From positions 32,458-96,457 of the forward strand of contig JAUCBJ010001486.1 in assembly GCA_032718475.1 (NCBI GenBank): DNA of 64,000 nt, in the 5' to 3' direction. The notes beneath the pieces are model-generated. The model saw only the letters and a program-made list of their open reading frames with translations, was not told the origin of the DNA and ran no database searches. The position numbers were made by a program, and so were the translations under genes. The stretch's first letter is position 1; each line of letters opens with the position of its first letter. Shown here piece after piece: positions 1,003-64,000 of the stretch. Source of the stretch: Nemertoderma westbladi. Its lineage: Eukaryota > Animalia > Xenacoelomorpha.

Positions 1003-3072
1003 ACACGTTCGTGGGGACTTCGCGCAGCACGAGGCCTAGTTATTATATACAAATTAAAATGCAGCGACTGTATCACAAAATCAGGTTTTGAGAAATTTAC
1101 CCACACCACCAATCAATCAAAGAAAGGTGGACAGTACGTGTTCACCCCTTTTAATCTCCCCCCCCCCCCCCCCCCCACCCTTCCCAACCACCAATACATA
1201 ACCGCGACATCTACCACCCACGGAAGGGTAGCACGAACTTATTTCCAATCGCACGTTAAATATGCAAAGCCAGGTGGTTTATAGGAATATAATAAACGCA
1301 GTACTCGTTTTCATTATAAGCCTCTTTGCGTTCGTCCTGTTTTGTATTTAAATATATTTCTTAAACGCAAGCTAGGACGATCTTTATAATAATAATAACT
1401 AGGGATGCGATCAATATGTGAAGCCAGGTGGTTTATATAATAATTTAGTCAACGCAGTACTCGTCTTCATTATATGCCTCGTTGCGCTCGTCGCTTGTCC
1501 TGTTTTGTCATAAAATATTTTTCCTAAACGCAGACTGACGATCTTTATACAGTTATAACTATGCGAAGTTTCGAAACTGTGCGAGTAACTGTTGATACAT
1601 CTATGTGGAGATGTGTGATATGTGGAGATGTGTGATACAACGCCAACGCATCTTATGCCGATGTAGTAATATGGGTATTGAAATAATATTAAATCAATGT
1701 ACACTCTTAAAGCTGCAGCGAAAAAATGTAGCTAATTTCCTAGGTTACATATAAAATAATAATATTATTTTTAAGAACATTAATTTTACTACTTTGCAAA
1801 AATTCAATTAAAAAATAACCAGACATATACATTGTGGAATAAATCTGTCATTTAACTGAGATAGCAATAGTAGTAATAGTCGAACGGTTATGCGGCCCGT
1901 CCAGCCTATAATAAACACAATTCAGTGATTGGGCTGAAATAGCAATACTGGTTGCCTCTATTACAATTCCTCTCAGGTTAGTCTACAGCCACAACTCCCA
2001 GCAGCTAGCTCCACACCAGCAGAGACTTGACCAATAATGGGAAGGATTAAATTTGTACTCAATAATTGTGCGGTTTAATTACGTTTAGATCAATTAAAGA
2101 CACATTTATTAAAGCAAATCACTTAAACTAATTAAAAACTATAATAGAATGGCGTATGGGGATTATATCTGTATAATTTTTAAGTATAATTATTTAAATC
2201 TTATACTGTAAAACAATTAATTTCCTTTAAAAGGCAGGTTGAAAATGGCGTTTTCACCGCAATCAACTTAATTAACTAATTAACTGCTATTATCTTAGCT
2301 TCTCGAAGGCCACACGGAAATTCTACTTGGAAAATTTCTAAACTTTTGCCAAACAACATGTGTACCAAGTTTGGATAGATTTCATCAAGGATTGGCCGAG
2401 TTATTAACGTTTAAAATTGAACACGACAGAACGACAGAACGACAGAACGACAGAACGACAGGTTGATTAATGGTACCACTACGCTAAGGCTCACTCACTT
2501 CGTGGCTCGCCCCACAATTCCTCTCAGGTTAGTCTACAGCCACAACTCCCAGCAGCTAGCTCCACACCAGCAGAGACTTGACCAATAATGGGAAGGATTA
2601 AATTTGTACTCAATAATTGTGCGGTTTAATTACGTTTAGATCAATTAAAGACACATTTATTAAAGCAAATCACTTAAACTAATTAAAAACTATAATAGAA
2701 TGGCGTATGGGGATTATATCTGTATAATTTTTAATTATAATTATTTAAATCTTATACTGTAAAACAATTAATTTCCTTTAAAAGGCAGGTTGAAAATGGC
2801 GTTTTCACCGCAATAAACTTAATTAACTAATTAACTGCTATTATCTTAGCTTCTCGAAGGCCACACGGAAATTCTACTTGGAAAATTTCTAAACTTTTGC
2901 CAAACAACATGTGTACCAAGTTTGGATAGATTTCATCAAAGATTGGCCGAGTTATTAACGTTTAAAATTGAACACGACAGAACGACAGAACGACAGAACG
3001 ACAGAACGACAGAACGACAGGTTGATTAATGGTACCACTACGCTAAGGCTCACTCACTTCGTGGCTCGCCCC
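1003..3072. mobile_element. Non-autonomous HINE/Helentron-like (DINE-1/pearl-like) element with a tandemly duplicated end
   Basis: Interrupts the LTR with no clear TSD (A|A junction). Termini ACACG..GTGGGGACTTCGCGCAGCACG and CTTCGTGGCTCGCCCC are shared with 32193-32713. Contains an (ACGACAGA)n microsatellite, a TGTACCAAGTTT core motif and ~155-bp internal direct repeats at 1260-1560. Confidence 0.65.
1963..3072. repeat. Near-perfect tandem duplication (1963-2513, 2514-3072)
   Basis: Two ~550-bp copies beginning ACAATTCCTCTCAGG and ending GGCTCGCCCC; the second has one extra ACGACAGA unit. Confidence 0.95.
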
Positions 3073-44100: not shown

Positions 44101-46422
44101 ATAGTAGCCTACCTGAGGGTTGAAACTCCAGATGGAATTAAAGTTGCCTTGGTCACCTCTAAGGCCTTGATAAACAACAAACTACGAGTTCCTCGAGCAG
44201 AGTTAAAGGCGGCTCTATACGCTACAGCCATCGGCCGGAATGTAACAGAACAGATCGACTATCCACTGGAGAAAACTGTCTATTGGACTGATGCTTTCCT
44301 CGTTTTGGAGTATATAACCAATGAAGTCTATCAGTTCAGCGTCTTCGTTACCAACAGAGTAGCCATTATACTTAGTCGCTCTAATGTAGATCAATGGAGA
44401 CATTGCCCTGGGACGATTAATCCAGCCGACATCGCCTCCAGAGGAGCAACTCCTCATGAACTGATAGATACTCCAGACTGGTTAGGTGGACCCGACTTCC
44501 TAAGTAAAGAAGAGGATGAATGGCCTCCTCATCTTACCACGGCTGAGATTAGACAAGCCAAGGGAGCGGAGGAAGTCAAACCTAAAACCCGGATGAGTAA
44601 ATCAAAGTTATTTAAACCCATGATAGATCTGTCTGTACTACACATTTCCAGGGACGACGCTGTGGATCTAAACTCCCCCACCACGAACAGATCTGTTATA
44701 GACATCAGAGAAAGAGACTGTAAATCTGGAACACCAGACGTCTCGCAAGGACTCTCACCTCTCCTGCAGAGAGCAATAAATCACTATAGCTCCTGGAATC
44801 GGCTTTGCAAGGCTGTCGTGTATCTGAAGCGATGCTTCCATCATCACTATTCCAGGACGAAGATCGCTAGTGATACCGCTCCACTGACATCCGAGCAGGT
44901 CCATGCTATTAAAGATCTTCCCACATACAAGGTGTCGGATAGGTTTCTGACGGAGAAGATCAGTTACCAAGAGCATGAAGCAACCAATAAGCAGATACTG
45001 AGACTCTTGCAATGCTATGAAGATTCCGATAAGTATTTCCTGTTGTTGAGAAATCCACAGATGCGCTTAAGGGATCGTTTCTCTAGCACAATGATAGATG
45101 GGTTAATACGTGTTGGAGGGAGACTAACTAATGCTCCATTATCCTTTGACACTAAATTTCCCATACTCATTAGAAATCTTGAAATACAAATCAAGATGAT
45201 TGTAGATGTTCACAGTAGGCTTTACCATGCTGGTAGAGAACGAGTTCTTAGCGAAATTCGAACTCGCTATTATTTCCATAAACCCCGTAGAGCTCTGAAC
45301 CAAATTCTTAGGAACTGTATATCCTGTAGGAAAGCATTCAGTAGGCCTTTAACACAGCGAGAGGCAGAATTACCTAGGGAACGAGTAAGCTTCTATGAAC
45401 CACCCTTTACTAATACTGGTGTGGATTTATTTGGCCCTATTGAAGTATATTGTGCTAGGACTATAGTCAAGCGATGGTGTGTCATCTTTGTCTGTATGAC
45501 TTGTAGAGCGATCCATCTAGATATGGTGAACGATCTATCTACCAACAGCTTCATACTGAGTTTACGCCGACAGATCGCTCGCTTTGGAACTAGCAACACG
45601 ATGAGATCTGATAAGGGAATGAACTTCATTGGCGCCAATAATGAGATCAAAGCTTACGTTAAAGATTGGAACCAAAGACAGGTGGATGATCAGCTAAGGG
45701 TAACATCATCTAGCTGGACCTTCAACGCCGCCGACGCCCCTTGGTGGGGAGGAAGTTGGGAGAGATTAATAAGGAGCGTGAAGACCGCATTTCACTTTAT
45801 AGTGCCTTGCCGCTCGTATCTCACCGACGAACTTTTGCGAACGTTAATGGAAGAAATCGCCGCCTATCTTAACGAGAGACCGCTTATGCCAGTCTCATCG
45901 AGTCCCGACTCCCTAGAAGCGCTAACACCCGCGCATTTCCTACTGAAGAAACCTGTAGCCATGCTCCCACAATCGGAAATCACGGACGGAGACGAATACT
46001 GCCGACAAACTTGGCAACTCATGCAGTTATTATCCCGTCGTTTCGCTGACCATTTCGAAAATCATTATCTGCCTACGCTACAACTTCGAACTAAGTGGTT
46101 TGCGCAGCAAGAAAACGTCAGCGCCGGAGATATGGTCCTTATTATGGAATCAGATCTTCCACGTATGCGGTGGCAGACAGGTTGTATCATCAAGACTCAT
46201 ATATCCGATGATGGTTTAGTGCGATCGGTAGAACTCGTCGTCATGCGACGTAACTTTAAGAAACCTGGAATTGTATTCGAAACACAACAACTCAATCGCC
46301 CAGTCGGTCGTTTATGTTTACTGGAAAGAGACAGAGAGCTATCCGGAAACTATGGAAGGCAAGATACTCTTCCCACGACCACCTCCCTAATCCAACAAAC
46401 ATCTAGGGACTCCTCAACGTAA
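38183..46422 (+). pseudogene. BEL/Pao gag-pol of copy A with several frameshifts and stops
   Basis: Fragments align to the 2625-aa ORF of copy B: triple Cys/His Gag motif, ALLDSGS, YMDD, HVFEDAS, DLFGP, SDKG, WWGGSWERL. Stops at 42124 and 43318. Confidence 0.93.
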
Positions 46423-46949
46423 CAGCGTCTGGAGTGGGTGTGTGACTACATTATTTTATATCTGTTTTTATTATTTTTATACTTATGTATGTATTATTAT
46501 GTAATTTTATTATAATCGTTTTCTTTAATTTTATTTAGTAGAATATTATTTTAGCGATTATTTAGTAGATTAGTGCAATATATATATATTTGTGTTTATT
46601 ACTTAATTACTTAACATTATATATTTAGTTTAACGGCGAGAAATAATTCTTTTTTCTCTTTCCTTACTGTCCGTATCATATTATAAATACGTGACTACAG
46701 TAAGATGAAATGTCCGTACTTATTAAAGTACAATACCGCTCCTACTATACTCAAGTATTATTGGTAAGTAGAGTATTAGGAATGCAAAGTTCAGATCCTC
46801 GTGTCTCGGCTAAACCGAGCTCTGGGTAGACCTTGGAAACGACTTGCCTCTTCTCACTGACATTGCTTCTTGCAATATTGCTCTCATACCGTATATTAAA
46901 TAATACATATAGTAGAATGATGTCCCTTTAACAGTAGCGTAAAACGCAA

Positions 46950-47370
46950 AATAAATCTGTTAAACCCTTTGACCATCTGTAATTCTAGTCGATTAAGATA
47001 TCGTGGCACCCACCGATATACTTGAAAGAAAAAATTCTAGAATCAGTGGTTAACGTCCCCAGACATGTTCTGGAATAAATCGGTGCCCATCTCAAATATT
47101 AAATATTTAATAAATATTTATAAAATCTATTAAAACAAATGTTATAATAGAGTCAATGCATACAAATAAACTCTAAGGAGTTTGTAAACCAAGAAAATCT
47201 ATAAAACAAAAATCTGTTAAAATTCAGATCCTTTAAAATTCTAGTCAATTAAGATATCGTAGCACTTACCGATACTCTTAAAAGGACAAATTTCCTAGAA
47301 TTAAGGATCCTAGTCCCCAGACATGTTCTGGAATAAAATTGTGTCTATTTTAATATTAAATAATAAAATT
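46950..47370. repeat. Diverged tandem duplication (~260-bp period) in the pol-accessory ORF spacer
   Basis: AATTCTAGTC.ATTAAGATATCGT.GCAC and GTCCCCAGACATGTTCTGGAATAAA each occur twice. Confidence 0.8.
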
Positions 47371-48158
47371 TACGGGAATAAATTTTCAATTCATATCCTC
47401 TCATGAATTTGATAAATTGTCATTTTATACAATTTATAACATTCCCAAAATTCCATTAATTAATAGATCATTGGAGCGGAGATTCACTCTATTAAGTGTA
47501 TTAGTGTACGAGAATCTCCAATATATAGTCAATAGCCGATAAAATTCATAAAATCATGTATAAAGGGGATATTGACCATTAAAGAATTACTATTAAATAG
47601 CATCCCAGATCTGTATGCATGAGAATTACCCTAATTCTACCGCTAGCTTTCCATAATGTCACCATGGCAACAACCACGCTAGAATTAGAAGTGAGTTAAA
47701 GAAACAATAGAAAGCTTGCCCCATTGAATAGCATAGGGAATAAATAGCGCACTGCTAGTATCCAAGGATACATAATAATAACGTGACATTCTGGAAGGTA
47801 CTGACTAACGGACAAATGGCCCGAATGTGTACAGTTTGTGACAGTTGTGTTGAATTTGTGTGTTTATAGGTGAATGTTACTGCTAAAGTGTGTTTACAGT
47901 AGCGAGTCGCAATTGTGAAAGTAGCCCTACTCTGCCGAAAGAACCTGAAGTACATCTAAGCCTTTGGGACGGACAGTGGAGTGACTTGTGCCGGTTATCG
48001 TTGTCATTGTGTAGCTACATCGTTGGCGAAAGCACAGCGACGACGGTACATCGGCGCTGAGGATCTTGCACTGTCCGGGGGCAAAGAGGGGTAGGCAGCG
48101 ACGCCCGCTAGCCTAAAATATAAACTCATTATAATATTGATAAACTCATATAGCAGAT

Positions 48159-49052
48159 ATGACTGAGTTGATAGAAGATGATCTTGGTATCAGGGAGCGA
48201 TATACTCTACCTTTACAAGCGTTTGTCGATAGCTTGATACGTGGCGATGCTGGTCCAACTACTACGGAGGATGATGGTCATTATATCGAACCGCCAATGT
48301 CCCAGGAGCAACTTATGCGTGAATTGGATTAAAGAAAGTTCACCGCTCGCTATACGCATCGTAATGGTACGTATATGGACTTCTTAACTACTGGTCATCC
48401 TATCGATTTACACGATACGGACGATGTAGACACCCAAAGGGAAATGGTCCTATTTAAATATCATACCCAGCGGAGTCGGAACGATAAACTGAGAATCGAA
48501 CATGAGAATTCTATTCGAAACTGACTCGAAAGAGAAGACTTTGAAGAACCGGATAAACGCAGTGACTTCAACGACTATTTGGAATTCTTGAGAGAAACAT
48601 ATCTCAATGTAGCCAGTCAACAAAACCTAGAAACTCGATATCCTCAAGGTATACATCATGACCCTATGATAGAACTCAAACGACTCTATTTCACTATGAT
48701 GTATCTTACCGCCGATCGACCGCTACCTGTTGTACCGGATAGCTTCGAACAGATGGAGGAATATTGTAAAACTGGAGAAAGATCACCCGCGTTTCCCCTA
48801 CAAGAAGTGCGTCTTTGGTATTATTGCGATGAATGCCCTAGACCCAACCAACAAATGTAAAGACATAAACATCCGCGGAGATGTTGCGCTAAACACAGTT
48901 TTACTCGCTATACTTACGGGAGTTTCGAGCAAAACTTGTTCGATGTATCACCTACGCTCGCTCGACTCAAACGATCCTTAAATAAACCGATGATCAGAGT
49001 TCCGGAATACTCGGTCAGATCTCCTCATTCCCTGGTGAGACCTCAGACTCTT
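48159..49052 (+). pseudogene. Accessory 3' ORF of BEL copy A, N-terminal part (3 in-frame stops, no frameshift)
   Basis: ATG at 48159; a single frame runs to the insertion site. Homologous to 51480-51749 (-), where two of the stops are sense codons. Confidence 0.8.
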
Positions 49053-50405
49053 TGTACGCGCTTTTGAAGACCTTTAGCAGTTTAACCTGCCAAAATTTAT
49101 ATGTCTTTTGGTTTATAAATAGACTTTAGAAGTTGACAAATATTTAATACCAATAAACACAACATTAGCAGAAGCCAGCCTAGTGCGCATCCATTCACCC
49201 GCTGGATATACCCGGGAGACTGGATTCTGAGGGCTTAGATTATTATTGCAGTGTAAGCTTACTGTATTATTCGATTGATCGTTAATAATTAATTTCTGAC
49301 TAATATTATTCACTTTCGGGAAATATTAACAGTTCCTTTAGGACGTGGCGCTCTATCTAGGTAAACAGAGATATGACTTATACTAATCACAACGGTAAGT
49401 CGGTAAGGCTTATGATTCACGTATGAGGCGCATTCTTTAGGAAATGCTTAGTTATCAGTCACAATCATGCACACTACCGGTACCGGTAACACACAATACT
49501 GCTCACTAATTTGCCGACCGTCAATGAATTTTATCATATATAAAGAGAACAGCAACGGACTCATGTAGTGCTTATCAAATAGCATTAGGTTCACTACAAA
49601 TCACAATAATATAAGTCGCAATCGCTATATATAACCCGTCTCTCTAACCAGTAGTGTATCAAGAAAATTGGGAAATTTGGGTTCTTTATAGATGTTATCC
49701 AAATAATATTCAACCAACTGATACAAAATATGACAACAGCAAACAGCAGCACAACAATGTATGTTGAACCGATAATGCAAGACTGAACGGAGTTGCACCG
49801 ATTGTTATGCACTGATAACAGTTATACGCTCTATAATTTAAGCCTACTAATGTTTCTTCTAAAGTATGAAAACGAGTTGACTCTAGAGCCGGTGTTCCTG
49901 GCCTAGATAGAAACAACACAACAGTAACAAGAAAAACAGTAAGACTGAACACTCCTAGCATGATCTGCCAAAATATCTCCACATCGACAGAAAAAATCGC
50001 TCTGATTGGCTGTTAAGCTAAACAAAGAACCATGTGTCCAATGGCCGTTTCCATGTCAGCAACCAGCTGTTAGATGTCGTAATCTGAATCATCAAGGCTA
50101 AGCTGTGCCAGGGTATTTGGTGCATTGCGGGTTTTTTGCCTTACCATGTCCGCCAAAGCACACATATAGAAGAATGACGTTTATGTCCGTTAAAACACCT
50201 ATAACGGTACCTTGCGGGCGAGGGGGATATATATATAGTTAGAGAGCTTTTTAGAGTATTCCAGCGCCTGGGGGGAAACTGGATTGCAAAGCAAAAGGGC
50301 CAGTTATATCCCACAGAAGCTTTTACACCGCTCCCAGAAAATGGGATTTGAGTCTATAAAATATACAAAATCACAGTTTCTAATATACGTAAATACTCTA
50401 AACAG

Positions 50406-51749
50406 TTAGTCTTTCTTACGCGGACGGCGTTTACGCAGTTTTTTAAAGCTAGCCAGAGTCTCTTTCTCTTTGGGGCGAGCCACTTTACAAGGAGGGCTAT
50501 AACTCCTGGGTGAAGGGTGCAATATGATTGCATCAGAGGGTGTAGGATTATGGTCGGTGTATCCGCCAGTCGAAGTACCGGGTTGATTGACATCAACGTC
50601 GGGGGAGAGGGGTCTAACGGCTTTGAGAGCTCGTTTTAAGACAGCCGCTCTTATGGGTCCTTTACGAGTGGTCTGAACGAGAGCCGTGGGTGGACCATAG
50701 GCAGTTAGAAACCTCCGGGGTTAAATGGTTCTTTCCAACTCGCGTTCGCAGGCTCAGTATTCATAAGGCCGTCGATATACTTCCTGTAACTCGGGGTGTG
50801 AGTTAACAAATAAGTCTCCATAGTCCGGGTCCTGACGGATATAATTGATTAAGCTATAGGAATGAAGGTCGCTAGGATTAACACTCCTGAGAAATTTGCG
50901 TACGAACTTGGTGGAAATGCATTCTCCAATGCGCTTCAGTAGTTCGTAACTCGATATGCGTGATTTCTGTTCGACAGAAGCGAATAGATAAGGATGGAAC
51001 GCATAAACTCCTTCGTAAGCGCGTCCAGGATAATAATGATGGTGCGAATCACAATGTAAATCAGCGTCCGCTTCCCAAGCTCTGATGTAACGTAGTGTGA
51101 TCATTTCATCTACGCTTTCCAAATCGTGATTAAAAAGGGCAATCGAAACTGGCGCGTCTCTTTAGTTGACAATGTTGCCATTGAGTCATAAATTGAGGGC
51201 AAACTGCAAAAATGTGCAAGTTATTGAGTCTGCAATACGCGCAATAAATTTCCATCGCCGGTTGTTCGTGGAAATAGGAACAGCGGACGTTTGTGTCCAT
51301 GGGCGTAACATGGTCTCTCGATGCGCATAACCGACAACGTTGCCGAGAAACATAGTTGGCATGGCGATAATCGTACGCAGTGAGACACTGTGGACCTTGA
51401 TACCATTCTAGGATGTAATCGTTGTCGCTGTTCCGGGCGCGATAGGCTGAATCTCCTCAGATTCTAGGCATATTGGTTCGTCTTCCCAGTCTGTTACGAA
51501 TAGAATTTTCGTGATCTATTTTCGGTTTATCGTTACGACTCCGCTGGGTATGATATTTAAATAGAACCATTTCCCTTTCGGTGTCTACATCGTCCGTATC
51601 ATGTAAATCGATAGGATGGCCGGTAGTTAGGAAGTCCATATACATACCATTACGATGCGTATAGTGAGCGGTGAATTTTCGATAGTCCAATTCACGCGTA
51701 AGTTGCTCTTGGGACATCGGCGGTTCGATATAACGACCATCGTCCTCCG
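50406..51749 (-). pseudogene. Accessory 3' ORF of BEL copy B (internally deleted; Zn-knuckle-like motifs; basic C-terminus)
   Basis: Reads EDDGRYIEPPMSQE..., then past a TGA to CRLCASRDH..CAYCRLNNLHIFAVC..HCQLKRRASFDC. A 1-nt slip near 51132 leads into ORF 50754-51122, and the same frame continues through two stops to KKLRKRRPRKKD* at 50406. Confidence 0.7.
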
Positions 51750-54700
51750 GCGCTGACGTTTTCTTGCTGCGCAAACCACTTAGTTCGAAGTTGTAGCGTG
51801 GGCAGATAATGTTTCTCAAAATGGTCAGCGAAACGACGGGATAGCAACTGCATAAGTTGCCAAGTTCGACGGCAGTATTCGTCTCCGTCGGCAATCTCCG
51901 ATCGTGGGAGCATGGCTACAGGTTTCTTCAGTAGGAAGTGCGCGGGTGTTAGCGCTTCCAGGGAATCGGGACTCGATGAGACTGGCATAAGCGGTCTCTC
52001 GTTGAGATAGGCAGCTATTTCCTCCATTAACGTCCGCAAAAGTTCGTCGGTGAGGTACGCGCGGCATGGCACTATAAAGTGAAATGCAGTTTTGACATTT
52101 CGAATTAATCTCTCCCAACTTCCTCCCCACCAAGGGGCGTCAGCGGCGTTGAAGGTCCAGCTAGACGCTGTTATCCTTAGCTGGTCGTCCACCTGTCTTT
52201 GGTTCCAGTCCTTCACGTAAGCCTGTATTTCGTTGTTGGCACCAATGAAGTTCGTTCCCTTATCCGATCTCATGGTATTACTCGTCCCGAAGCGAGCGAT
52301 CTGTCGCCGTAGACTTAAGACGAAGCTATTGGTAGATAGATCGTTCACCATATCGAGATGGATGGCTCTACAGGTCATGCATACGAAGATGACACACCAT
52401 CTCTTGACTATAGTCCTAGCACGATATACTTCAATAGGGCCAAATAAATCTACACCAGTATTAGTAAAAGGTGGTTCATAGAAGCTTACTCGTTCCCTAG
52501 GTAATTCTGCCTCTCGCTGTGTTAAAGGCCTACTGAATGCTTTCCTACAGGGTATGCAGTTCCTAAGAACTTGGTTCAGAGCTCTACGGGGTTTATCAAA
52601 ATAATAGCGAGTTCGAATTTCGCTAAGAACTCGTTCTCTACCAGCATGATAAAGTTTACTGTGAACATCTACAATCATCTTGATTTGTACTTCAAGATTT
52701 CTAATGAGTATGGGGAATTTAGTGTCAAAGGATAATGGCGCATTGGTGAGTCTTCCTCCAACACGTATTAACCCATCTATCATTGTGCTAGAGAATCGAT
52801 CCCTTAAGCGCATCTGCGGATTTCTCAACAACAGGAAATACTTTTTGGAATCCTCATAGCATTGCAGGAGTCTCAGTATCTGCTTATTGGTTTCTTCATG
52901 CTCCGGGTGACTAATTTTCTCCTTTAGAAAACGGTCAGATGTCTTATATTTGGGTAAATTTTTAATAACATGAACTTGCGCAGATGTCAATGGAGCGGTA
53001 TCACTAATGGTCTTCGTCCTGGAGTAGTGATGATGAAAACATCTCCTTAAATATGTGACGGCTTTACAGAGCCGATTCCAGGAACTGTAGTGATGCATTG
53101 CTCTCTGCAGCATAGGTGAGATTCCTTGCGAGACGTCTGGTATTCCAGATTTCCAATCTCTATCTCTAATTTCCACAACAGACTTATTTGTGTTGAGGGA
53201 TTGTGGATCCGAAGCATCATTCCCGGAAGTATGTAATACAGATAGATCGATAGTCGGTTTAAATAACTTCGATTTACTCGCCCGGGTTTTAGGTTTGACT
53301 GTCTCCGCTCCCTTGGCTTGTCTAATCTCCGCCGTAGTAAGGTGAGGAGGCCATTCATCCTCTTCCTTGCTCAGGAAGTCTGGTCCACCCAACCAATCTG
53401 GAGTATCTATCAGCTCCTGTGGAGTTGCTCCCCTGGAGGCGATATCGGCTGGATTAATCGTACCAGGGCAATGTCTCCATTGATCTATCTTTGTGCGACT
53501 AAGAATAATAGCTACCCTGTTAGTAACAAAAACGCTGAACTGACAGACTTCATTGGTTAGATATTCCAACACGAGTAAAGCGTCGGTCCAATAAACCGTT
53601 TTCTCCAGTGGATAGTCGATTTGTTCCGTTACGTTCCAGCCGATGGCTGTAGCGTATAAAGCCGCCTTTAACTCCGCTCGAGGAACCTTTAACTTGTTGT
53701 TAATCAATGCCTTAGAGGTAACCAAGGCGACTTTGATTCCATCCGGGGTTTCGACTCGCAGATATGCTACTATACCTATTCCCATGTCGCTGGCATCTCC
53801 AAACACATGGAGTTGATAGGAATACGTAGGAAGAACATGGCCAAAATATGCACGGGAAATTATAAAGTTCTCGATGGCAGGTAGAGAATCTTCCCATTTC
53901 ATCCATTTCTTTAACAATTCTCCCTTAAGCGGATCGTCCCATGAGTGGTTTTCAAGCCACATTTGTTGTACTAAACTCCGAGCAATCAATATAACTGGGC
54001 TTATAAATCCCAATGGGTCGAAATAAGTGCTCAGGATACTTAAACAGATCCGTTTGGTCCGAACTGGATTATCTCGCTGTTTTAACTGAAAAAACAGGAT
54101 GTCTCTTTCAGTGTCCCACTTCAAGCCTAGCGTCTTGGTTTCAGGAAGATCGTCCTTTATTAAGTCTAGGTCTTTCGTTCCTCGGTCTTCTACCGGTATG
54201 GCTTCCAGAAACTCACGGGAGTTGCTAGTGAATTTCGTCAGTCGAAATCCACCTCTTTTCAAACACTCTACCGTTCCTTTCGCGACATCTATGGCTTCTT
54301 CTACTGATGGAAGGGACCTTAAATTGTCGTCCATGTATATATTACGTTTTATGTTGTCTATCACTTCTTTTGAGAAGGAGTCTCGGTTGTCATTCGCAGT
54401 GGTTCGCACCACGGAGCAGGCGTTGGAAGGGCTTGATATGATTCCAAAAGCCTGGATGGTCATCCAGTACTCTACCGGTTTCTGATTGAGGTCTCCTTCA
54501 GGCCACCACAGAAATCTCAGGCTGTCTCTATCTCTATCCAGCGCCTTGACTTGTAAGAACATTCCTTCTATATCGGAGGCAAACGCGATGGAATATTGTC
54601 TTAATCTTAAAAGTATTCCCAACAAAGATTGGAGTAAGTTGGGTCCTGGTAACAACTCGGAATTGAGGGATTGGCCCATATATAGGGCGGAGCCATCGAA

Positions 54701-57700
54701 TACGACTCGTACTTCGTGGGGTTTACCGGGTTTGGGAACGTAATGATGTGTTAAGTAATACGTTCTCTCAGTCACTGGTGTTCCTTCCGGTACTCGCTCC
54801 GCGTATCCCTTTGTTATAAATTTCTTCAGCTGAGTTTGGTACATTTCTTTAGCTGAAGCATTAGCCGTAAGGCGTCGATGTAATTGAGCGATTCTTTTCT
54901 CTGCCAAGGGTCTGTTATTTATAAATCTAGGTTCTCGTTTTCGAAATGGTAGGCCGATTTCATATCTACCTTGGTCCTTTAAAAAACGTGTAGTTGTTTC
55001 CTGGATTTGCTTGGCTCTTTCTTCTTCTATCGATAGGGCCTTATCATATGAATTAGGCTCTACCAGTTCTTGAGTAAAGAATCGTACGGCTAGTTCGTCC
55101 CGAGTTCTAGCGTTGTAGCGCTCTATCTCATCGTTTAGTTCGTCATTGTAAGCGATGGGTTCCGATGGGCGAATCAGTTGACATAGGTTCACCTGATTTT
55201 TCCAAGTTTGGTTTTCTGTAAGTAGGTCGATTGTGTTCTCTTCATCGAAGAGTTGGTAGATGTCGTCATTATCTGAGGAGTATGGTGTTTTCTCAGTTAG
55301 TTCGTCCACCTCACTGCTCTCCACTTCCCAATCGTTTACTTGGCATATTCGTTCTTGTGGCATTCTCTCTTCGAGAGTCCTGCGGGAAGGGCCAGTAAAG
55401 TACCAACCTACTCTAGTTCTTACCGCATAGGTTTGCAGTGGCTGCGGTTGAGCAGGCCATTTCTCCAATGTTTCGAGCGCCTCATGCGCGTTTTGGCCGA
55501 TGAGTATTTGCACTCCAGGATAATCTGTCTGGAATCGAGGTATCTTAAGATGTTGGATGCTTTCATCCTCGTCCCAATTATAAAGGTCTGCTTGAGTAGT
55601 AGCGAAGTTCTTTATAGCCACCATTTTTACCGACCTTATACCTTGTGCTCCTAACTTATCCTGGGGGGTGGACAATACACCTACATAGTAATCTGCCGTT
55701 AGGGTAGATTTCCAAACCTGCATAATTCCTGACATATTCAATTTAGTCCGGAATTTGGGTTGTCCAGCAAAGATATCTTCGGCTGGTTCTTGATCGATGA
55801 ATGTTCCTGTACTGCCGGAGTCAAGGAGGGCGTTCACTATGTAACTGTTGTTAAGACCGTGAACTCTTACCTGCACTACAGGAAATTCTCTGATTCCTAC
55901 ATTGGAAGTTGGAGCTTTCCAAGATGGTTGTCTGTCAAAGGTAGTTGGGGGGAACTCATTTTCGGTGTCCTTTTCATAAGTAAGTGCTCGATACACCGCG
56001 GTATTGATTAGGTAACAGGATTCGTTGGCGTCGGAGAATTCGTCAGTATAGAATCCTCCCATCTCAGACTCCTGATCAGTGTCATTTACATCACTGAATT
56101 GGACATGTAGTTCGGGCTCACTTACCTGACTCTGTTTGTCTCGTTCGAACTCACTGTGTAACAAGATGTGATGTTTCGCGCCACACTTTGCACACTTTAT
56201 GTCGGAGTAACAGGTTCGCCGTTGGTGTCCTGGTCTGAGGCAATTATAGCATAACCGCTTATCCCACACGACTGCACGTCTGTCTACAAGGGATTTCTTT
56301 AGAAATTCAGCACACGCACTCAAACGGTGGGTTCCGTCGCACAGCGCACAGTTAGGTTTTATGTTACTCACTTTACCTTGGGTAACTTGATGCACTCTCG
56401 TTCTTTCTTCGGGTTTTCTTCGGTGCATTCTGTTAGGAGACTGAGGAGGGGTCTTGGCAACCTGTTCTCTCCTATCGTTGTTTCGAGCCTTGTATTTACT
56501 TACGTCTTTTGAGGTTTTGTCAACATAGTAAGATCGATCAGTGTCTTTCCCGCTGTCCTCTTCTTGAGAAGCTTGGCTTTCGCCGTCGTCAGTGTAACAC
56601 ACCGGTGTTACTCTTCTCCTAGAAGCGGGTTTCTCACTTACCTTATTTTCCGATGTTTTCTCTCTGGACTGCTTGATGAGTTGTAGTTTTACTTCACCAT
56701 CTAAGAAGGACATGAGATCAGCCATGGTAGGGCTTCGTCGTTGCTGCTCATTCATATACAACACTTTCTTGTCCCAGCGTGTACATACTCCACCCTTTGG
56801 TAAAGTAGAGACTACTGCTCCAATAACCATGGAACTCTGATATTCATGAGACTTACCTAACCAGTCCAGTTGTCTACAGATCTCTTGAATCTCATCAGAA
56901 AACTCTATAATCCTGCTATTAAGGAAGTTTCGGGGGGCTACTAATTTTGCATACAAATACTTAGCTATGTTATCCTTGTTACCATACCTGATGTTTAATG
57001 TATCCCAAACTTGTCTTAATCCTTCTGGATGTCCAATGAACTTTAACGCCATTAACTTGGGAGGTCCTTCCAAGCACTTGATGAGGAACCTAAGTTTCTC
57101 TCCGTTAGATAGCACAGAGTTCTGTATGCTGTCTTTGTAATATTCGTTGAAAGGTAACCATTTCATCTCATCTCCATTGAATTTGACGATCTCTCCCACT
57201 TTGACCGCTTGGCGGGCTTCTGTTCTAGCCATCTGACGCGTAAAGCTTTCTTGGGCCATCGTGTTATTTAATATCGAATTATCGGTATATAAATTTCTCG
57301 GATCATTATCAGGTCTATAGGGAATATCATTAACAACAGGTCTATAATCACCCTTAATAGGGTTTGCTATAGGAGTTTCTACTTCACTAGCAGTATAGAT
57401 GCGTGTAGGCTCCACACCTTGCGCATGTAATACTTCAGACCTAACAGGCTGACACAATGTTACAGGGGGTATGGGTATACCCTTTTGTATGTTGACTAAT
57501 TTGTCGCGTTCCAGCGCGATACTTTGTTGCACTTCTTGCAATTCTGCCCTACCTTCCCTTACTGTTCCCTTAATTTGGTAGACAGTCTCCTGCATCTGTC
57601 CGAGCAGGAGATTCATCCCCCGCCGTCCCTCCTCTACCCACTCGACCGCCGAAGCGGGAGTCGCCAACATTGTAGCGGGCTGACGTGGGACGACGGGAGA

Positions 57701-59569
57701 CAAATCTTTGATTTCTCTCTCAGCTTCCAGGACAGGGATATTCTCATGGACTGTTCTACCGGGTACAGGCAGTGTAGTACTGTGTAAAGGGAATTTAGAG
57801 TTAAGCTCTGGAAGTACAGGGGTCTCTAGCACAGTAGTGGCTTTGGGAACGACAGGCCCAATTATTTCAGGCTCATCAACTATTGTAGGGAGTCTTTTGA
57901 CCTTAATAATTTGGTCTGTAGGTTCTATACTACCTAAGTCTGGGCTAGCTAGTTGTCTTCTAACCGCTGGGGGCAAATCAGGCAATTTGTGATGGTGAGA
58001 TGTTTTTCTACGCCTGCTTAGACGAGATCTATTTCCTCCGCCTTCAGGATCGGTGGTTTCGCTTTCCTCTGATGAGGTGTATCCCTGGCGTTTGGGAGTA
58101 GATCTTCTCATCATCTGCATGTGACTAGCAGTTAACTGTTTATTTATGTTGTCTTGCGTCTCTTGAAGATTTTCCAACTCCAGTTGTGTGGTCTCCTCAG
58201 ACGCTCTCCGTTCTGCTTCTGCTACTGCCTTTGCTGCTTTTCTTTCTGCTTCTGCTTCTGCCGCCGCTGCCTTTCTTTCTGCTTCTACTTCTGCCATTGC
58301 CGCTGTTACTTTTCTTTCTGCTTCTGCTTCTGCCGCCGCTGCCTTTCTTTCTGCTTCTACTTCTGCCATTGCCGCTGTTACTGCAGCTGCCTTTCGGTCC
58401 TCTATCCGTTTTTTCTTTACTAGTTCTTCTTGGACTCTAGTGAGGCGGAGTTTTTCATCAAACTCAGCTTGGTTAGCAGCTAACATTTCAGCATCGATTG
58501 AGTCTAACACACACTGGGTTCCTTCACTATTAGGGGAAAGTCCAGACAGCCGTCTCCTCAACTCTTCGTCTCCTAGGAATCGCTGATAGTCGGACAGATA
58601 TATGTCGATGGCGTCTCTCGTTCGTGGTCTCTCTGCGGTCTCTTCGCCTTCCACTTGAGAAAGGGTGGCATCGGTTGGTTCTTCATAGGTTAGTCTCTCA
58701 GACAGCTGGGATTTCCACTGGTCCGTTTCTTGTACTTTGAGACCTACCCGCTGGAACCAAGTTTTGACAGCAACCTGCAGCGACGTGTCCTGTCTTCTTT
58801 TGGAAGTTTCCTCAAAGGCTGATAGGATTAGTCTAATGCGTAGGGTTCTTTCGCGTACTTGATATAGCAGCTCTTCCTGCTCTTGAGGTCCTTGGGGTTG
58901 TCGAAACAGTTGTTCTTCCAATCGCTCTAAGGAGCCGAAGAATCCCTGCACATATCCTGCTGCCGACCTCTTCCAAACAGCTGGATCCATCGTATCTTTA
59001 GCCACTCCCATCCTGTGTATATCTTCCCAAGTAGCTTCGGACAAATCTAACGGGAGTCCGGGTCCGGGAAAGTTCCATTGTGACTCGACAACAGACATCA
59101 ATTCTTCGCTGGCGTATCCTGCATAATTATCTTGGGTCGCTCTCATACTTCTCGCCCAATCGGCTTGATGTTCTTCCACCGCAATCAATATAGTAGTTAG
59201 TACTGCGGCAGGAAGGGTGAGAAGGGGGTCCGAGTAGGCTGTAGCCGCCATCTGCAATCCGCGTTCGGGGGTCAGCTCTACAGTATCCGAACTACTGGAG
59301 CTATCTGATCGCTGGGAACAAGTTTCTTGACTAGGATGTTGCTGCTGTTGGACAGCTGCTTCCTGGTTCCGTTTGACTTGGGCCCGAGTGCCGATGATAG
59401 ACCTACGGTGTTGGATTAGCTTAGGGTCTGATACTACTACTGGAGGGATGACCTTTCTTTCAGTAGGAGGTGAGCTGAACTCCTTTCTTAATCGCTCCAC
59501 ACTCCTATCTGTGTCACAGATGGTTGTATCGATTAGACTGTCTGACAGGTTTTGCTGGGTGTCAGACAT
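51692..59569 (-). CDS. BEL/Pao Gag-Pol polyprotein (2625 aa; integrase C-terminus truncated by deletion)
   Basis: CALC..H..C / CYNC..H..C / CAKC..H..H Gag knuckles, ALLDSGS protease, YMDD RT, HVFGDAS RNase H, HAG..CIPC plus DLFGP/SDKGTNF/WERL integrase. Confidence 0.97.
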   Translation of the reverse strand: MSDTQQNLSDSLIDTTICDTDRSVERLRKEFSSPPTERKVIPPVVVSDPKLIQHRRSIIGTRAQVKRNQEAAVQQQQHPSQETCSQRSDSSSSSDTVELTPERGLQMAATAYSDPLLTLPAAVLTTILIAVEEHQADWARSMRATQDNYAGYASEELMSVVESQWNFPGPGLPLDLSEATWEDIHRMGVAKDTMDPAVWKRSAAGYVQGFFGSLERLEEQLFRQPQGPQEQEELLYQVRERTLRIRLILSAFEETSKRRQDTSLQVAVKTWFQRVGLKVQETDQWKSQLSERLTYEEPTDATLSQVEGEETAERPRTRDAIDIYLSDYQRFLGDEELRRRLSGLSPNSEGTQCVLDSIDAEMLAANQAEFDEKLRLTRVQEELVKKKRIEDRKAAAVTAAMAEVEAERKAAAAEAEAERKVTAAMAEVEAERKAAAAEAEAERKAAKAVAEAERRASEETTQLELENLQETQDNINKQLTASHMQMMRRSTPKRQGYTSSEESETTDPEGGGNRSRLSRRRKTSHHHKLPDLPPAVRRQLASPDLGSIEPTDQIIKVKRLPTIVDEPEIIGPVVPKATTVLETPVLPELNSKFPLHSTTLPVPGRTVHENIPVLEAEREIKDLSPVVPRQPATMLATPASAVEWVEEGRRGMNLLLGQMQETVYQIKGTVREGRAELQEVQQSIALERDKLVNIQKGIPIPPVTLCQPVRSEVLHAQGVEPTRIYTASEVETPIANPIKGDYRPVVNDIPYRPDNDPRNLYTDNSILNNTMAQESFTRQMARTEARQAVKVGEIVKFNGDEMKWLPFNEYYKDSIQNSVLSNGEKLRFLIKCLEGPPKLMALKFIGHPEGLRQVWDTLNIRYGNKDNIAKYLYAKLVAPRNFLNSRIIEFSDEIQEICRQLDWLGKSHEYQSSMVIGAVVSTLPKGGVCTRWDKKVLYMNEQQRRSPTMADLMSFLDGEVKLQLIKQSREKTSENKVSEKPASRRRVTPVCYTDDGESQASQEEDSGKDTDRSYYVDKTSKDVSKYKARNNDRREQVAKTPPQSPNRMHRRKPEERTRVHQVTQGKVSNIKPNCALCDGTHRLSACAEFLKKSLVDRRAVVWDKRLCYNCLRPGHQRRTCYSDIKCAKCGAKHHILLHSEFERDKQSQVSEPELHVQFSDVNDTDQESEMGGFYTDEFSDANESCYLINTAVYRALTYEKDTENEFPPTTFDRQPSWKAPTSNVGIREFPVVQVRVHGLNNSYIVNALLDSGSTGTFIDQEPAEDIFAGQPKFRTKLNMSGIMQVWKSTLTADYYVGVLSTPQDKLGAQGIRSVKMVAIKNFATTQADLYNWDEDESIQHLKIPRFQTDYPGVQILIGQNAHEALETLEKWPAQPQPLQTYAVRTRVGWYFTGPSRRTLEERMPQERICQVNDWEVESSEVDELTEKTPYSSDNDDIYQLFDEENTIDLLTENQTWKNQVNLCQLIRPSEPIAYNDELNDEIERYNARTRDELAVRFFTQELVEPNSYDKALSIEEERAKQIQETTTRFLKDQGRYEIGLPFRKREPRFINNRPLAEKRIAQLHRRLTANASAKEMYQTQLKKFITKGYAERVPEGTPVTERTYYLTHHYVPKPGKPHEVRVVFDGSALYMGQSLNSELLPGPNLLQSLLGILLRLRQYSIAFASDIEGMFLQVKALDRDRDSLRFLWWPEGDLNQKPVEYWMTIQAFGIISSPSNACSVVRTTANDNRDSFSKEVIDNIKRNIYMDDNLRSLPSVEEAIDVAKGTVECLKRGGFRLTKFTSNSREFLEAIPVEDRGTKDLDLIKDDLPETKTLGLKWDTERDILFFQLKQRDNPVRTKRICLSILSTYFDPLGFISPVILIARSLVQQMWLENHSWDDPLKGELLKKWMKWEDSLPAIENFIISRAYFGHVLPTYSYQLHVFGDASDMGIGIVAYLRVETPDGIKVALVTSKALINNKLKVPRAELKAALYATAIGWNVTEQIDYPLEKTVYWTDALLVLEYLTNEVCQFSVFVTNRVAIILSRTKIDQWRHCPGTINPADIASRGATPQELIDTPDWLGGPDFLSKEEDEWPPHLTTAEIRQAKGAETVKPKTRASKSKLFKPTIDLSVLHTSGNDASDPQSLNTNKSVVEIRDRDWKSGIPDVSQGISPMLQRAMHHYSSWNRLCKAVTYLRRCFHHHYSRTKTISDTAPLTSAQVHVIKNLPKYKTSDRFLKEKISHPEHEETNKQILRLLQCYEDSKKYFLLLRNPQMRLRDRFSSTMIDGLIRVGGRLTNAPLSFDTKFPILIRNLEVQIKMIVDVHSKLYHAGRERVLSEIRTRYYFDKPRRALNQVLRNCIPCRKAFSRPLTQREAELPRERVSFYEPPFTNTGVDLFGPIEVYRARTIVKRWCVIFVCMTCRAIHLDMVNDLSTNSFVLSLRRQIARFGTSNTMRSDKGTNFIGANNEIQAYVKDWNQRQVDDQLRITASSWTFNAADAPWWGGSWERLIRNVKTAFHFIVPCRAYLTDELLRTLMEEIAAYLNERPLMPVSSSPDSLEALTPAHFLLKKPVAMLPRSEIADGDEYCRRTWQLMQLLSRRFADHFEKHYLPTLQLRTKWFAQQENVSAGGRWSLYRTADVPRATYA

Positions 59570-60889
59570 GTTTAGCTATACAGTTGAATGTCTACTGCTA
59601 TAGTTACAGTTAAAGCAAGTCTATTAATTCAGTATGACCGTTGGCCTAGTACCGGTAATTTATTGCAGTATATTAGAATACCGGTATACACTTATAATAT
59701 ATATAAGTATTGTAAACTAGTTTTGTCACAGAGTACCGGTATATAAGTTTAGCACAAATATATATAAATATATAATAGGCCTATCGTGAATACCGGTATA
59801 CAGCTTACACTTATAGTATATATAAGTATAATTATGAACTAGAATTAATTACAGAGTACCGGTATGATTTCAGCCCAAATTTATAGAAATAAATATAATA
59901 AGCCTATGGTAAATACCGGTATGTCAATTATTTTAGAAAAATTGAATTTCTGAATATTTTAGGGTTACTTGGTTACTTTAACTTACTTTATTACCGTTAT
60001 TTAAGCAGTAGTCCAACTGATATTGAGACCTAGTTGTTGTATGGCAGGCCTACTATTGATAAATCGTTTGAGTTGATTTATAATATTTATATACCCGTTT
60101 AAGATGGGTTTTGTCAATATTCGAAATAAATGTTATTATTTCTGGGGGGTCACTACACAGAAGCTGTGCGCTCTCAGTGAAGTGTTAATTATTGGACACT
60201 AAAACAGATAATTATAATTTACCTAAGTTACTTAATACTACAAATTACGTACGATACGGGTGAGATTAAATCTCTAATTAAACACAACAAAAATATTACG
60301 TACGAAATTTTAGGGTAATTTTACAGGAAGTCTACAAACCAGCCTAACAAAGGGCTAGATTTCTGGTTATTACAACGGACAGGGTACTACGGTATTTGAA
60401 AATAATAAGTAGTAGTAAATATATTGCACTGTCCAGATAGGAAAATACCACCGCCTGACGACCTATAGCTGTATCGCTATAGGTACTACGTTATGTATCA
60501 CGGAGTGTTCCTACCTGGAAGTTAATTACCGCGGACTACCAGATCCAACGTGCCTATTAACCACTTTACAACACAAATATACTGCCTACACACTAATTAC
60601 TTCGGAAAGCACTGTACACTAAACCCTAAATTAGGTACAAGTACTGGTACAACAAATAATCAGTAGTTAAATATACTTGAACAGTTAAAAGAACCACGGC
60701 ATCTGCTGGAGTGACCGAAGCACAAAGTCACCAGTCTTTTCCTACGCCAAGCAGCCCGTGTAGTACCGGGGTTAATTTAACTATAACGGTATGTGTAACA
60801 AACACAATTACTGTAGGAATAAACTTGGGGACATGAATGTTGCGAATAATCGCATAAACTCTGAATAATAAATATTACGCTACCCGTAC

Positions 60890-61385
60890 AGAATACTCAA
60901 ACAAATACAAACCAAAACGCTGGCAGACTACCACCAAGCCGAAATAAACTACTGTATGTGCAGATTCAAAAACGGTTAGTTAGTATGCGTTCTAACACGG
61001 TAGTACGACTTATTCTTTAAGAGGGGATTGACCTTACAGCTATGGCTGCCCCAACTTACTAACTGGCACTTTATCAGACAAACTCTACACACGCAGCAAT
61101 CTCTTCAGACCTAATAATAGCTAGACAACAATCCAGCCCACAAAATATCTGAGTAATAACTATTACGGTACCTGAACAGACCACACAAACAAACACAGGC
61201 CAAAACGCTGGCAGAATACTGTCAAGCCTAAATAAACTACAGTATGTGCAGATTCCAAAATGGTTAGTTAGTATGCATTCTAACACGGTAGTACGACTTA
61301 TTCTTTAAGAGGGGATTGACCTTACAGCTATGGCTGCCCCAACTTACTAACTGGCACTCTATCGGACAAACTCTACACACGCCGT
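60890..61385. repeat. Tandem duplication in the copy B 5' leader
   Basis: CCAAAACGCTGGCAGA...CAAACTCTACACACGC occurs at ~60912-61095 and ~61200-61382; copy A has a single unit. Confidence 0.85.
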
Positions 61386-63088
61386 AATCTCTCCAAACCC
61401 AACAACAATCCGACAACAGTCCGGCCTACAGTTATCTGAACAATCTGAGCAGACTTACACGTCTTCAGCTCAATATTAACTTACTAGGAAATAAAACTGA
61501 CAGAAATGGACCTAAGTAAAATCCCAATAAAAACCAGGCGTCCCCGATTTAATATCGAGACCTACCGGTATACAATAATCAAAATCGAATAATACTAATG
61601 TACTTATACTGGAAGTACCGGTTAGGATGGTTGGGCCTACAGACCTACAGAAGTACCGGTTCTGGCAGTTGGACCTACAGACCTACAGCAGTACCGTTTC
61701 TGCCAGTTGGGCCTACTGACCTACAGAAGTACCGGTTCAGGTTTACCGGTCGACCGGTACTTTCAACTTTATTGCTTACTGCAATAAAGACGATAACTGT
61801 TATTGTACGCGCTTTTGAAGACCTTTAGCAGTTTAACCTGCCAAAATTTATATGTCTTTTGGTTTATAAATAGACTTTAGAAGTTGACAAATATTTAATA
61901 CCAATAAACACAACATTAGCAGAAGCCAGCCTAGTGCGCGTCCATTCACCCGCTGGATATACCCGGGAGACTGGATTCTGAGGGCTTAGATTATTATTGC
62001 AGTGTAAGCTTACTGTATTATTCGATTGATCGTTAATAATTAATTTCTGACTAATATTATTCACTTTCGGGAAATATTAACAGTTCCTTTAGGACGTGGC
62101 GCTCTATCTAGGTAAACAGAGATATGACTTATACTAATCACAACGGTAAGTCGGTAAGGCTTATGATTCACGTATGAGGCGCATTCTTTAGGAAATGCTT
62201 AGTTATCAGTCACAATCATGCACACTACCGGTACCGGTAACACACAATACTGCTCACTAATTTGCCGGCCGTCAATGAATTTTATCATATATAAAGAGAA
62301 CAGCAACGGACTCATGTAGTGCTTATCAAATAGCATTAGGTTCACTACAAACCACAATAATATAAGTCGCAATCGCTATATATAACCCGTCTCTCTAACC
62401 TGTAGTGTATCAAGAAAATTGGGAAATTTGGGTTCTTTATAGATGTTATCCAAATAATATTCAACCAACTGATACAAAATATGACAACAGCAAACAGCAG
62501 CACAACAATGTATGTTGAACCGATAATGCAAGACTGAACGGAGTTGCACCGATTGTTATGCACTGATAACAGTTATACGCTCTATAATTTAAGCCTACTA
62601 ATGTTTCTTCTAAAGTATGAAAACGAGTTGACTCTAGAGCCGGTGTTCCTGGCCTAGATAGAAACAACACAACAGTAACAAGACAAGAAAAACAGTAAGA
62701 CTGAACACTCCTAGCATGATCTGCCAAAATATCTCCACATCGACAGAAAAAATCGCTCTGATTGGCTGTTAAGCTAAACAAAGAACCATGTGTCCAATGG
62801 CCGTTTCCATGTCAGCAACCAGCTGTTAGATGTCGTAATCTGAATCATCAAGGCTAAGCTGTGCCAGGGTATTTGGTGCATTGCGGGTTTTTTGCCTTAC
62901 CATGTCCGCCAAAGCACACATATAGAAGAATGACGTTTATGTCCGTTAAAACACCTATAACGGTACCTTGCGGGCGAGGGGGATATATATATAGTTAGAG
63001 AGCTTTTTAGAGTATTCCAGCGCCTGGGGGGAAACTGGATTGCAAAGCAAAAGGGCCAGTTATATCCCACAGAAGCTTTTACACTCTT

Positions 63089-63952
63089 GATCCTAATAGT
63101 ATCACGGATCCTCCCGAACTGTACTCACTGTTCAAAGATCTAGTGTTACCCGAACAATTAATCGGTGGCACTCCGGTAGTGGGCTCTCTAGATATTCGCC
63201 CATCCTACCTAGCCGGATTGGGACGCGGACATTTAATATCGCCGTTTAACCCGTATAATCGTCCCGGTTTAACCCCGATACAACCCATCACCGAAGTCGA
63301 GGAGAGCGTTGTACGAAACGCGTTAGACGCTATTCGGCAAAAGATCGGAAAAGGAACTTACGATTGTTTAGATAAACGTAAATTGCAGCAGCAAGTCCAA
63401 CCGGTAAAAGAATTAGCTTTACCTCAGTTCGATCGAGAAATCCAGAATCTCGAGGAGGACATCGAACTTGGACGAACCTACTCTCTACAAGAGTTTTTAG
63501 ACGAACGCTTCCAACGACAAGCGGAGGAAAATCAGCTCGAGGAGAAGCATATCGAAATGGACGAGAGAGATGAAGCAGCTTTAGCCCAACCAGAAGCTCA
63601 AATCCTTATGACTGATCTCTATTCCAAAACCATCATTCATCCCTCGTTGGTTCCCCATTTCGGAGACAAACTCTTCGCCACGGTACAACCCCAACCGGTT
63701 GATATCAACCTAAGTTGTGTCGCTTGTGTCGACGGTATACTCGTTGAACCCCTGGACAATCGAGCGGATATTGTCCGTCGTATGGTACACGAGGTCAATC
63801 TACGCGCTAGACCTTTACCGAACTCATTTTATGGGATCAAAGACCACCCTTATTATGTCAATCTAACTCAATATTATATGGTGAAACCGGAAGATCCTCT
63901 GCATAGTTTAAAGTTTCTACCATTGATAAATCCCGCGGTGACTTGTTCATAA
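63089..63952 (+). CDS. Accessory 3' ORF of BEL copy A, continuation after the copy B insertion
   Basis: Open from 63089 (DPNSITDPPELYSLFKDLVLPEQ...) and in frame with 48159-49052 once copy B and one TSD are removed. 63937-64000 switches to GDLFINSHPELQEVHRRPYEY, matching the end of ORF 50754-51122. Confidence 0.8.
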   Translation, partial: DPNSITDPPELYSLFKDLVLPEQLIGGTPVVGSLDIRPSYLAGLGRGHLISPFNPYNRPGLTPIQPITEVEESVVRNALDAIRQKIGKGTYDCLDKRKLQQQVQPVKELALPQFDREIQNLEEDIELGRTYSLQEFLDERFQRQAEENQLEEKHIEMDERDEAALAQPEAQILMTDLYSKTIIHPSLVPHFGDKLFATVQPQPVDINLSCVACVDGILVEPLDNRADIVRRMVHEVNLRARPLPNSFYGIKDHPYYVNLTQYYMVKPEDPLHSLKFLPLINPAVTCS

Positions 63953-64000
63953 ACTCGCATCCAGAACTACAAGAAGTTCATAGACGACCCTATGAATATA

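Follow-up and report, generated by a model that had tools for sequence, protein, structure and literature searches.

What does a BEL/Pao-type retrotransposon carry downstream of pol, if not an envelope gene? The question is raised by a window of 64,000 nucleotides from Nemertoderma westbladi (Xenacoelomorpha; GenBank assembly GCA_032718475.1, contig JAUCBJ010001486.1, positions 32,458 to 96,457 of the forward strand; coordinates below are those of the window). It contains two long, related long-terminal-repeat (LTR) elements, copy A on the plus strand and copy B on the minus strand, nested within A, and an LTR fragment of the same family, copy C. A first-pass annotation, made from the sequence without database searches, had proposed that these elements carry an extra, non-env gene 3' of pol. 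Our analysis supports that proposal: a non-env accessory gene in this oversized BEL/Pao-type family is real, element-borne and selected.

In copy A, the accessory frame opens at ATG 48159 and runs for 298 codons to 49052 (48159..49052, plus strand), with stops at 48330-48332, 48522-48524 and 48858-48860. It picks up in phase at 63089 and continues for 287 codons to a stop at 63950-63952, giving 585 codons in total, while in the other reading frames stops number 11-23 over the first part and 12-22 over the second. The annotation had described the frame in these terms, and its start, its length of about 585 codons and its three stops all hold; its final codons before 63952, however, are an out-of-frame run-on. 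The middle part proper (63089..63936, plus strand) has 283 codons and no stop. A frame-shifting deletion near 63937 follows, after which the remaining stretch (63937..64000, plus strand) includes 21 codons matching copy B 50819-50757, just as the annotation's jump into copy B-like sequence implied. In copy B, a deletion of about 2.1 kb reaches from the integrase end into the gene. After it the copy carries a 269-base piece of the gene's 5' part (51481..51749, minus strand; 89.6% identical to A 48265-48533), followed by the 3' part, which is mostly missing from A and is known mainly from B (50406..51480, minus strand). This 3' part encodes a Cys/His cluster (51456-51130), a His/aromatic block, a Pro-rich stretch and a basic tail; it is broken at 51457-51459, near 51130-51161, at 50754-50756 and at 50721-50723, and ends 78 bases before the LTR. 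The gene holds the same position and direction in both copies. A separate nested element as its source can be set aside, since A and B both carry the gene at the same place.

The accessory gene is under purifying selection. Over the 87 codons shared by A and B, 17 synonymous and 9 non-synonymous differences give a synonymous rate (dS) of 0.389, a non-synonymous rate (dN) of 0.045 and a dN/dS of 0.116 (Fisher p 3e-7), a ratio far below 1 in a check that had been named beforehand. The two other forward frames of the same region give 0.6 and 2.1. For comparison, dN/dS is 0.09 in pol over 927 codons and 0.10-0.23 in the remaining gag-pol pieces. In the 21 codons near the 3' end, A and B differ by 15 synonymous versus 2 non-synonymous changes. 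A comparison of codon usage did not separate the frames. As a side observation, dS between A 48265-48533 and B 51749-51481 is 0.39, below the 0.53-1.2 of gag-pol, and the LTRs are only 66% identical; this closer match of the gene piece may hint at recombination between sublineages.

Selection is also visible among other copies. Contigs of four runs (X1, X3, X4 and X5) were compared with the window and placed on 48156-49095, with 9784 matching records of 8,938,268 in X1, 2980 of 1,581,921 in X3, 34 of 15,198,257 in X4 and 131 of 1,901,655 in X5. The family is abundant and diverse, although summed depth is not a copy number. The 40 best-supported of 308 variant rows were split at 95% of X1 depth into variants that segregate and variants private to copy A. 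Of the 27 segregating variants, 19 are synonymous (expected fraction 0.21-0.30, p <= 2e-5) and 19 lie at third positions (p 9e-5), whereas the 13 private variants are spread 5, 4 and 4 over the codon positions, 2 of them being synonymous and 2 lying at stops (Fisher p 0.002). Because the segregating variants are mostly synonymous and the private ones are not, we conclude that the gene is conserved among active lineages and that copy A decayed after insertion. At stops 1 and 3 of copy A more than 99% of X1 depth differs from the window, and at stop 2 copy B has a sense codon; in copy A, the gene shows no higher density of breaks than gag-pol (p 0.16). An antisense gene was considered and rejected: the minus frame sharing third positions would make 16 of the 27 variants synonymous, yet all three minus frames have at least 11 stops.

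These selection results largely refute the idea that the gene is a captured host or foreign sequence carried without benefit to the element. Extra open reading frames (ORFs) of LTR elements often come from many sources, according to the literature consulted, and some derivatives here lack the gene; but its dN/dS between element lineages is near that of pol, and its 5' piece has no relative among 1.84 billion representatives. We regard a passenger of this kind as scarcely credible.

Other copies also show the junction uninterrupted. The junction 49052/63089 is crossed without an insert by at least 18 records in X1, at least 14+4 in X3, at least 1 in X4 and at least 4 in X5, loose-end counts being drawn from the best 24 of 252 rows. 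Excision of copy B is therefore not the sole route to the gene, and the annotation was wrong to call it recoverable only by removing the nested copy. Among the pieces listed, none covers the whole of 48156-49095. A single contig in X4 and another in X5 repeat the internal junction of copy B at 48533, and deletions within the gene at 48185-48394, 48598-48763 and 48815-48900 recur in 3, 3 and 2 of the 4 runs, respectively.

The non-overlapping pieces of A and B sum to 298 + 283 + 220 + 21 + 116 = 938 codons, which is a lower bound only on the assumption of a single ORF. The complementary pieces add up to the annotation's estimate of some 900 residues or more, although no sequence joins the middle part of A to the knuckle part of B. 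Two adjacent genes, one acidic and 5' (from copy A), the other knuckle-bearing and 3' (chiefly from copy B), would account for the fact that A 63089-63936 and B 51480-50820 have no overlap by blastn or tblastn, a point against a single product, and the window does not fix the length that lies between them. Yet the A frame stays open until its deletion is reached, the B knuckle frame has no ATG ahead of its first Cys cluster, and the deletions of both copies join the halves with no spacer visible. We therefore think it rather unlikely that there are two genes, and one continuous protein of about 940 or more residues is likely. At the copy B stop 50754-50756, the matching codon of A, with one base left in the window, cannot be a stop, and so the basic tail is probably part of the accessory frame.

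We place copies A and B in BEL/Pao because of their Pfam families, with these values on copy A: DUF1759 (2e-12), Peptidase_A17 (3e-35), Integrase_H2C2 (6e-7) and DUF5641 (2e-19). The Gag-Pol order is that of the Belpaoviridae, namely protease, reverse transcriptase, RNase H and integrase, with the protease and reverse transcriptase motifs identified by eye. LTR ends of the TG..CA type and a short target duplication, another trait of that family, are also present, as is the triple Cys-His box of Gag, three such boxes being found in the copy B translation. Copy B spans 49053-63083 with ends TGT...ACA, flanked by a 5-bp target duplication at 49048-49052 (left) and 63084-63088 (right). Its 5' LTR (61804..63083, minus strand; 1280 bp) holds the predicted self-primer discussed below at 62576-62566, and compared with it the 3' LTR (49053..50327, minus strand) is 99.3% identical, with 4 mismatches and one 5-base gap in 1280. 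The gag-pol of copy B (51692..59569, minus strand) has 2625 codons and no stops, although its integrase C-terminus was removed by the 2.1-kb deletion, which shows 5-base microhomology and reaches into the accessory gene. Copy A is 81% identical to B across gag-pol and about 66% across the LTR. Its 5' LTR (35143..36337, plus strand) is 1195 bp long, and its broken gag-pol (38256..46422, plus strand; start approximate) is interrupted by two stops and changes frame three times between 38459 and 46422. A non-coding spacer follows (46423..48158, plus strand; 34% GC) with a 155-bp duplication, a GC- and CpG-rich patch at 47900-48099 and a TATAAA at 48119. Copy B measures 14,031 bp despite its deletions, and the full element, with a 2.2-kb leader, would be at least 17,106 bp by summed minimum, outside the 4.2-10 kb typical of Belpaoviridae, a descriptive trait and not the basis of the family. 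This size contrast rests on one source (PMC8742986), and the element lengths in another, of which a part was available (PMC3118150), may bear on it.

Copy C comprises an LTR fragment and leader start at 135..1006 (minus strand; LTR part 147-1006). More fragments of the same LTR family lie at 1-1006 and 3075-3448, and 1-75 contains another LTR end together with the beginning of a leader. Gag has variable Ala/Glu/Arg/Lys repeats at 39373-39617 and 58211-58382, and the copy B leader contains repeats of 288, 123 and 38 bp. Rfam gave no matches in 35000-64000.

Could the accessory gene encode a highly diverged envelope or cell-to-cell transmission protein, as env does in the Tas, Cer and Atlas elements? 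It occupies the env position, and env-like genes are the only third genes in the available part of the Belpaoviridae profile (PMC8742986). The best 19-residue mean hydropathy in the four pieces is 0.46, 1.43, 0.83 and 0.65, and the 1.43 stretch includes two Asp and one Glu. A hydropathy scan of the approximately 940 residues, ends included, found neither a signal peptide nor a membrane anchor, although one gene segment lies outside the sequence and that segment, or an upstream exon, could supply a hydrophobic stretch. Thus, for the sequenced parts, the scan agrees with the annotation, which had seen no signal peptide or transmembrane segment. There are just 3 N-glycan sequons, and similarity to a viral fusion glycoprotein was absent from Pfam, PDB sequences and, for the 5' piece, the 1.84 billion representatives; the Env of Atlas virus, as far as its description goes, carries transmembrane helices. 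An envelope protein is therefore very unlikely. The translations show the features that the annotation had listed, namely Cys/His motifs, an acidic stretch and a tail; the N-terminus is acidic, the C-terminal tail is basic, and cysteines are grouped with histidines. In copy B, the spacings are C-x2-C-x4-H-x9-C and C-x2-C-x5-H-x4-C, different from the canonical CCHC knuckle (C-x2-C-x4-H-x4-C, Pfam zf-CCHC).

Homologue searches returned no envelope or host-gene match in the databases searched, an outcome on which the annotation had also made its proposal depend. Pfam, PHROGs and NCBIfam held no relatives (best E 0.24), nor did PDB sequences (best E 0.23), and HMMER with the 5' piece only found none among the 1.84 billion representatives at E 0.001. 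In a 5.8-billion library, none of 235 candidates of 163-522 residues was related to the 5' piece, none of 2760 of 504-2000 residues to the middle piece and none of 652 of 238-2000 residues to the 135-residue piece of copy B. An Atlas search with the middle piece was blank, and with the knuckle piece the nearest Atlas clusters were zf-CCHC-like at 0.85 and with a low recognition value, a lead only. Viral and metagenome contigs contained no relatives of the accessory gene; a pol query was equally blank in both collections, so that they hold no close relatives of the family and the accessory blanks there say little. The searched libraries are mostly microbial, and the gene is an orphan in the sense of these searches.

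What, then, might the protein do? By analogy with retroviral transactivators and with the VANC proteins of plant transposons, its motifs suggest a trans-acting, zinc-binding nuclear regulator of the family's expression, a reading to which we give about even chances. The gene would encode a single protein that enters the nucleus through its basic tail, binds its target through the Cys/His clusters and raises the family's expression by acting in trans on its DNA or RNA. As the gene lies 1.7 kb past the pol stop, it would need its own transcript, and an internal promoter immediately upstream of ATG 48159 would supply this. GC content climbs from 16-46% to 50-58% at 47900-48099, with 13 CpG per 200 bases, and is followed by the TATAAA at 48119; an AG sits two bases before the ATG. 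TATAAA motifs (5 seen, 2.4 expected) and splice donors occur in the spacer at chance rates, and the candidate promoter is weakly favoured. Separate, spliced transcripts are established for the ORF3s of bdelloid rotifer elements in the part of that study available (PMC5408684).

Supply in trans would fit the history of copy B. Its accessory gene has four breaks in 357 codons and its gag-pol none in 2625 (p ~2e-4), where about 0.1 nonsense changes would be expected in the accessory codons since insertion. In the copy B lineage, gag-pol stayed open while the accessory gene decayed, and derivatives without an intact gene still spread. The recent move, judged from its 99.3% identical LTRs, of B with a broken gene, together with the recurring deletions in the gene, fits a product supplied in trans.

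Several observations weigh against a regulatory zinc-binding protein. Copy B lacks its integrase C-terminus and may itself have moved with help, and so says little about whether the gene is needed. No piece matches a Pfam zinc finger, and the Atlas score of 0.85 is under that resource's level of 0.9. Single-sequence AlphaFold models were unusable (mean predicted local distance difference test 35 and 36), and with neither a homologue nor a usable model, the proposed function draws on motifs alone. The selection estimates cover the 5' 298 codons and the 21 close to the 3' end, and so neither the middle nor the knuckles, and their variant rows are the best-supported subset. Finally, conservation like that of pol is unlike what we would expect of a fast-evolving anti-silencer.

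The same elements probably prime their own reverse transcription. In copy B, the first 11 bases past the 5' LTR (61793..61803, minus strand) form a perfect reverse complement to LTR bases 508-518 (62576-62566), pairing at 11/11 positions, and the 11-mer was present in 3 of 2000 shuffled copy B LTRs. In copy A, the bases directly after the LTR (36338..36348, plus strand) pair at 10/11 positions, 9 of them unbroken, with a predicted self-primer site at 35533..35543 (plus strand), and in copy C, 899-888 pairs with 146-135 at 12/12 positions (minus strand). The paired sites of A and C sit at the aligned LTR position of B. Between A and B, the LTR site has changed at columns 2, 7 and 11, and its partner in the same three columns (chance 1 in 165); between C and B, column 11 has changed on both sides. 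A Watson-Crick pair adjoins the LTR end in every copy, each time a different one, and column 2 is broken in A. Under a published definition of self-priming (at least 10 bases, 0-5 after the 5' LTR, complementary to an LTR site; PMC6317226), copies B and C qualify and A comes close. No TGG-type primer site follows the 5' LTR of B: TGG is absent over the next 97 bases, and pairing with the LTR is found at that place. Reverse transcription would start as in Tf1, in which the RNA's initial 11 bases anneal to the primer site and are cleaved by RNase H according to the accounts available: the initial 11 bases in the element's own RNA would pair beside the 5' LTR, with the predicted primer 3' end at the LTR edge. 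Counting against this, copy A has a rival LTR site for the 11-mer at -7.4 kcal/mol, versus -7.2 for the predicted one; the pattern comes from three copies only, and the 11-mer is nearly palindromic. Hairpins are predicted, without a shuffle control, near the LTR 3' end of all three copies (around 61804, 36337 and 147) and just past the primer position in B and C.

Self-priming bears on a further alternative, in which the accessory protein would serve the long genomic RNA as a chaperone or in export or packaging, and not act as a transcription or chromatin factor; it might then aid self-primer annealing. The knuckle-like Cys/His spacing, a genome of at least 17.1 kb with its 2.2-kb leader, and the long-range RNA pairing over some 770-800 bases that self-priming would need all speak for such a role. 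But Gag already has three Cys-His boxes, the knuckles make up about a tenth of the protein, and Tf1 self-primes by RNase H cleavage with no extra gene mentioned in the portions of the literature at hand; we consider this role possible but doubtful. We continue to favor a regulator of expression. The boldest combination of our proposals is a BEL/Pao lineage of at least 17 kb, primed in the Tf1 style and not by tRNA, whose own zinc-finger anti-silencer or transactivator would drive very high copy number while deleted derivatives ride free. We offer it tentatively, as an unlikely whole.

Elsewhere in the window, tandem arrays of approximately 55-base units occupy 11215-13544 and 20160-21599, one unit being common to 12709-13544 and 20160-21599. 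Direct repeats of 272 bp at 15211-15482 and 19496-19765, 99% identical and 4.3 kb apart, possibly mark a young LTR element, and inverted repeats of 148 bp at 24633-24780 and 25603-25750, 99% identical and spanning about 1.1 kb in all, possibly bound a non-autonomous DNA transposon that is young.

Little is settled about the means by which animal LTR retrotransposons counter silencing by the host, and of their large groups BEL/Pao has been studied least; the orphan gene, under selection and borne by a very abundant family, provides a concrete protein for testing. Among LTR elements in general, extra ORFs whose function is unknown occur commonly, and the function suggested here is a guess. From the self-priming signature, transcription is predicted to start near LTR base 508; if true, the signature would extend self-priming to a third superfamily beyond the gypsy- and copia-type elements listed so far.

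We compared these findings with the available portions of PMC8742986, PMC5735166, PMC3118150, PMC5408684, PMC8556966, PMC554778, PMC6317226, PMC5443660, PMC3601003, PMC7175516, PMC6431247, PMC12440569 and PMC9094657. Neither a non-env accessory gene nor self-priming was found reported for BEL/Pao in the open-access literature, where the spelling with a slash is unsearchable and subscription journals and Repbase are outside the scope; as far as that literature goes, the self-priming signature is new for the group. The ICTV profile of the Belpaoviridae describes elements of 4.2-10 kb with an 18-base tRNA-Arg or tRNA-Gly primer site and env-like third genes of unknown function (PMC8742986), and the triple Cys-His box is named as a feature of BEL/Pao Gag (PMC554778). 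The elements described here share the TG..CA LTRs, the 5-bp target duplication, the single gag-pol frame, the Pao-type Pfam families and the three Gag boxes, but differ in their length of at least 17.1 kb, a third gene without env features and a primer site that pairs with the LTR. Cer7 is reportedly described with a small extra ORF beyond env. Like our elements, Tas, Cer7/Cer13 and Atlas virus have an extra coding region 3' of pol; theirs, in the parts of the reports consulted, is an Env with transmembrane helices and similarity to phlebovirus-like glycoproteins, neither of which was seen here (PMC9094657, PMC554778).

Lineage-specific extra genes, often of unknown function, are shared with the bdelloid ORF3s (PMC5408684), the extra ORFs found in 3372 plant Ty3/gypsy elements (PMC6317226) and Burro (PMC6431247), as partially consulted, although those elements are gypsy- or copia-type and several encode GDSL or DEDDy domains, whereas no Pfam similarity was found for our accessory gene. 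Tf1/sushi, the Tcn1 chromoviruses and TAR copia elements, listed as self-priming in the portion available of PMC6317226, likewise have about 11 bases after the 5' LTR that are complementary to an LTR-internal site; they belong to other superfamilies, and here the arrangement is known from sequence pairing alone. The VANC proteins of VANDAL elements (PMC5735166, available in part) belong to plant DNA transposons and have had binding and demethylation shown, and our protein is likened to them by description only. By analogy, both would be transposon-encoded, family-specific and act on related copies, and both VANDAL and the element described here have repeats in their non-coding regions.

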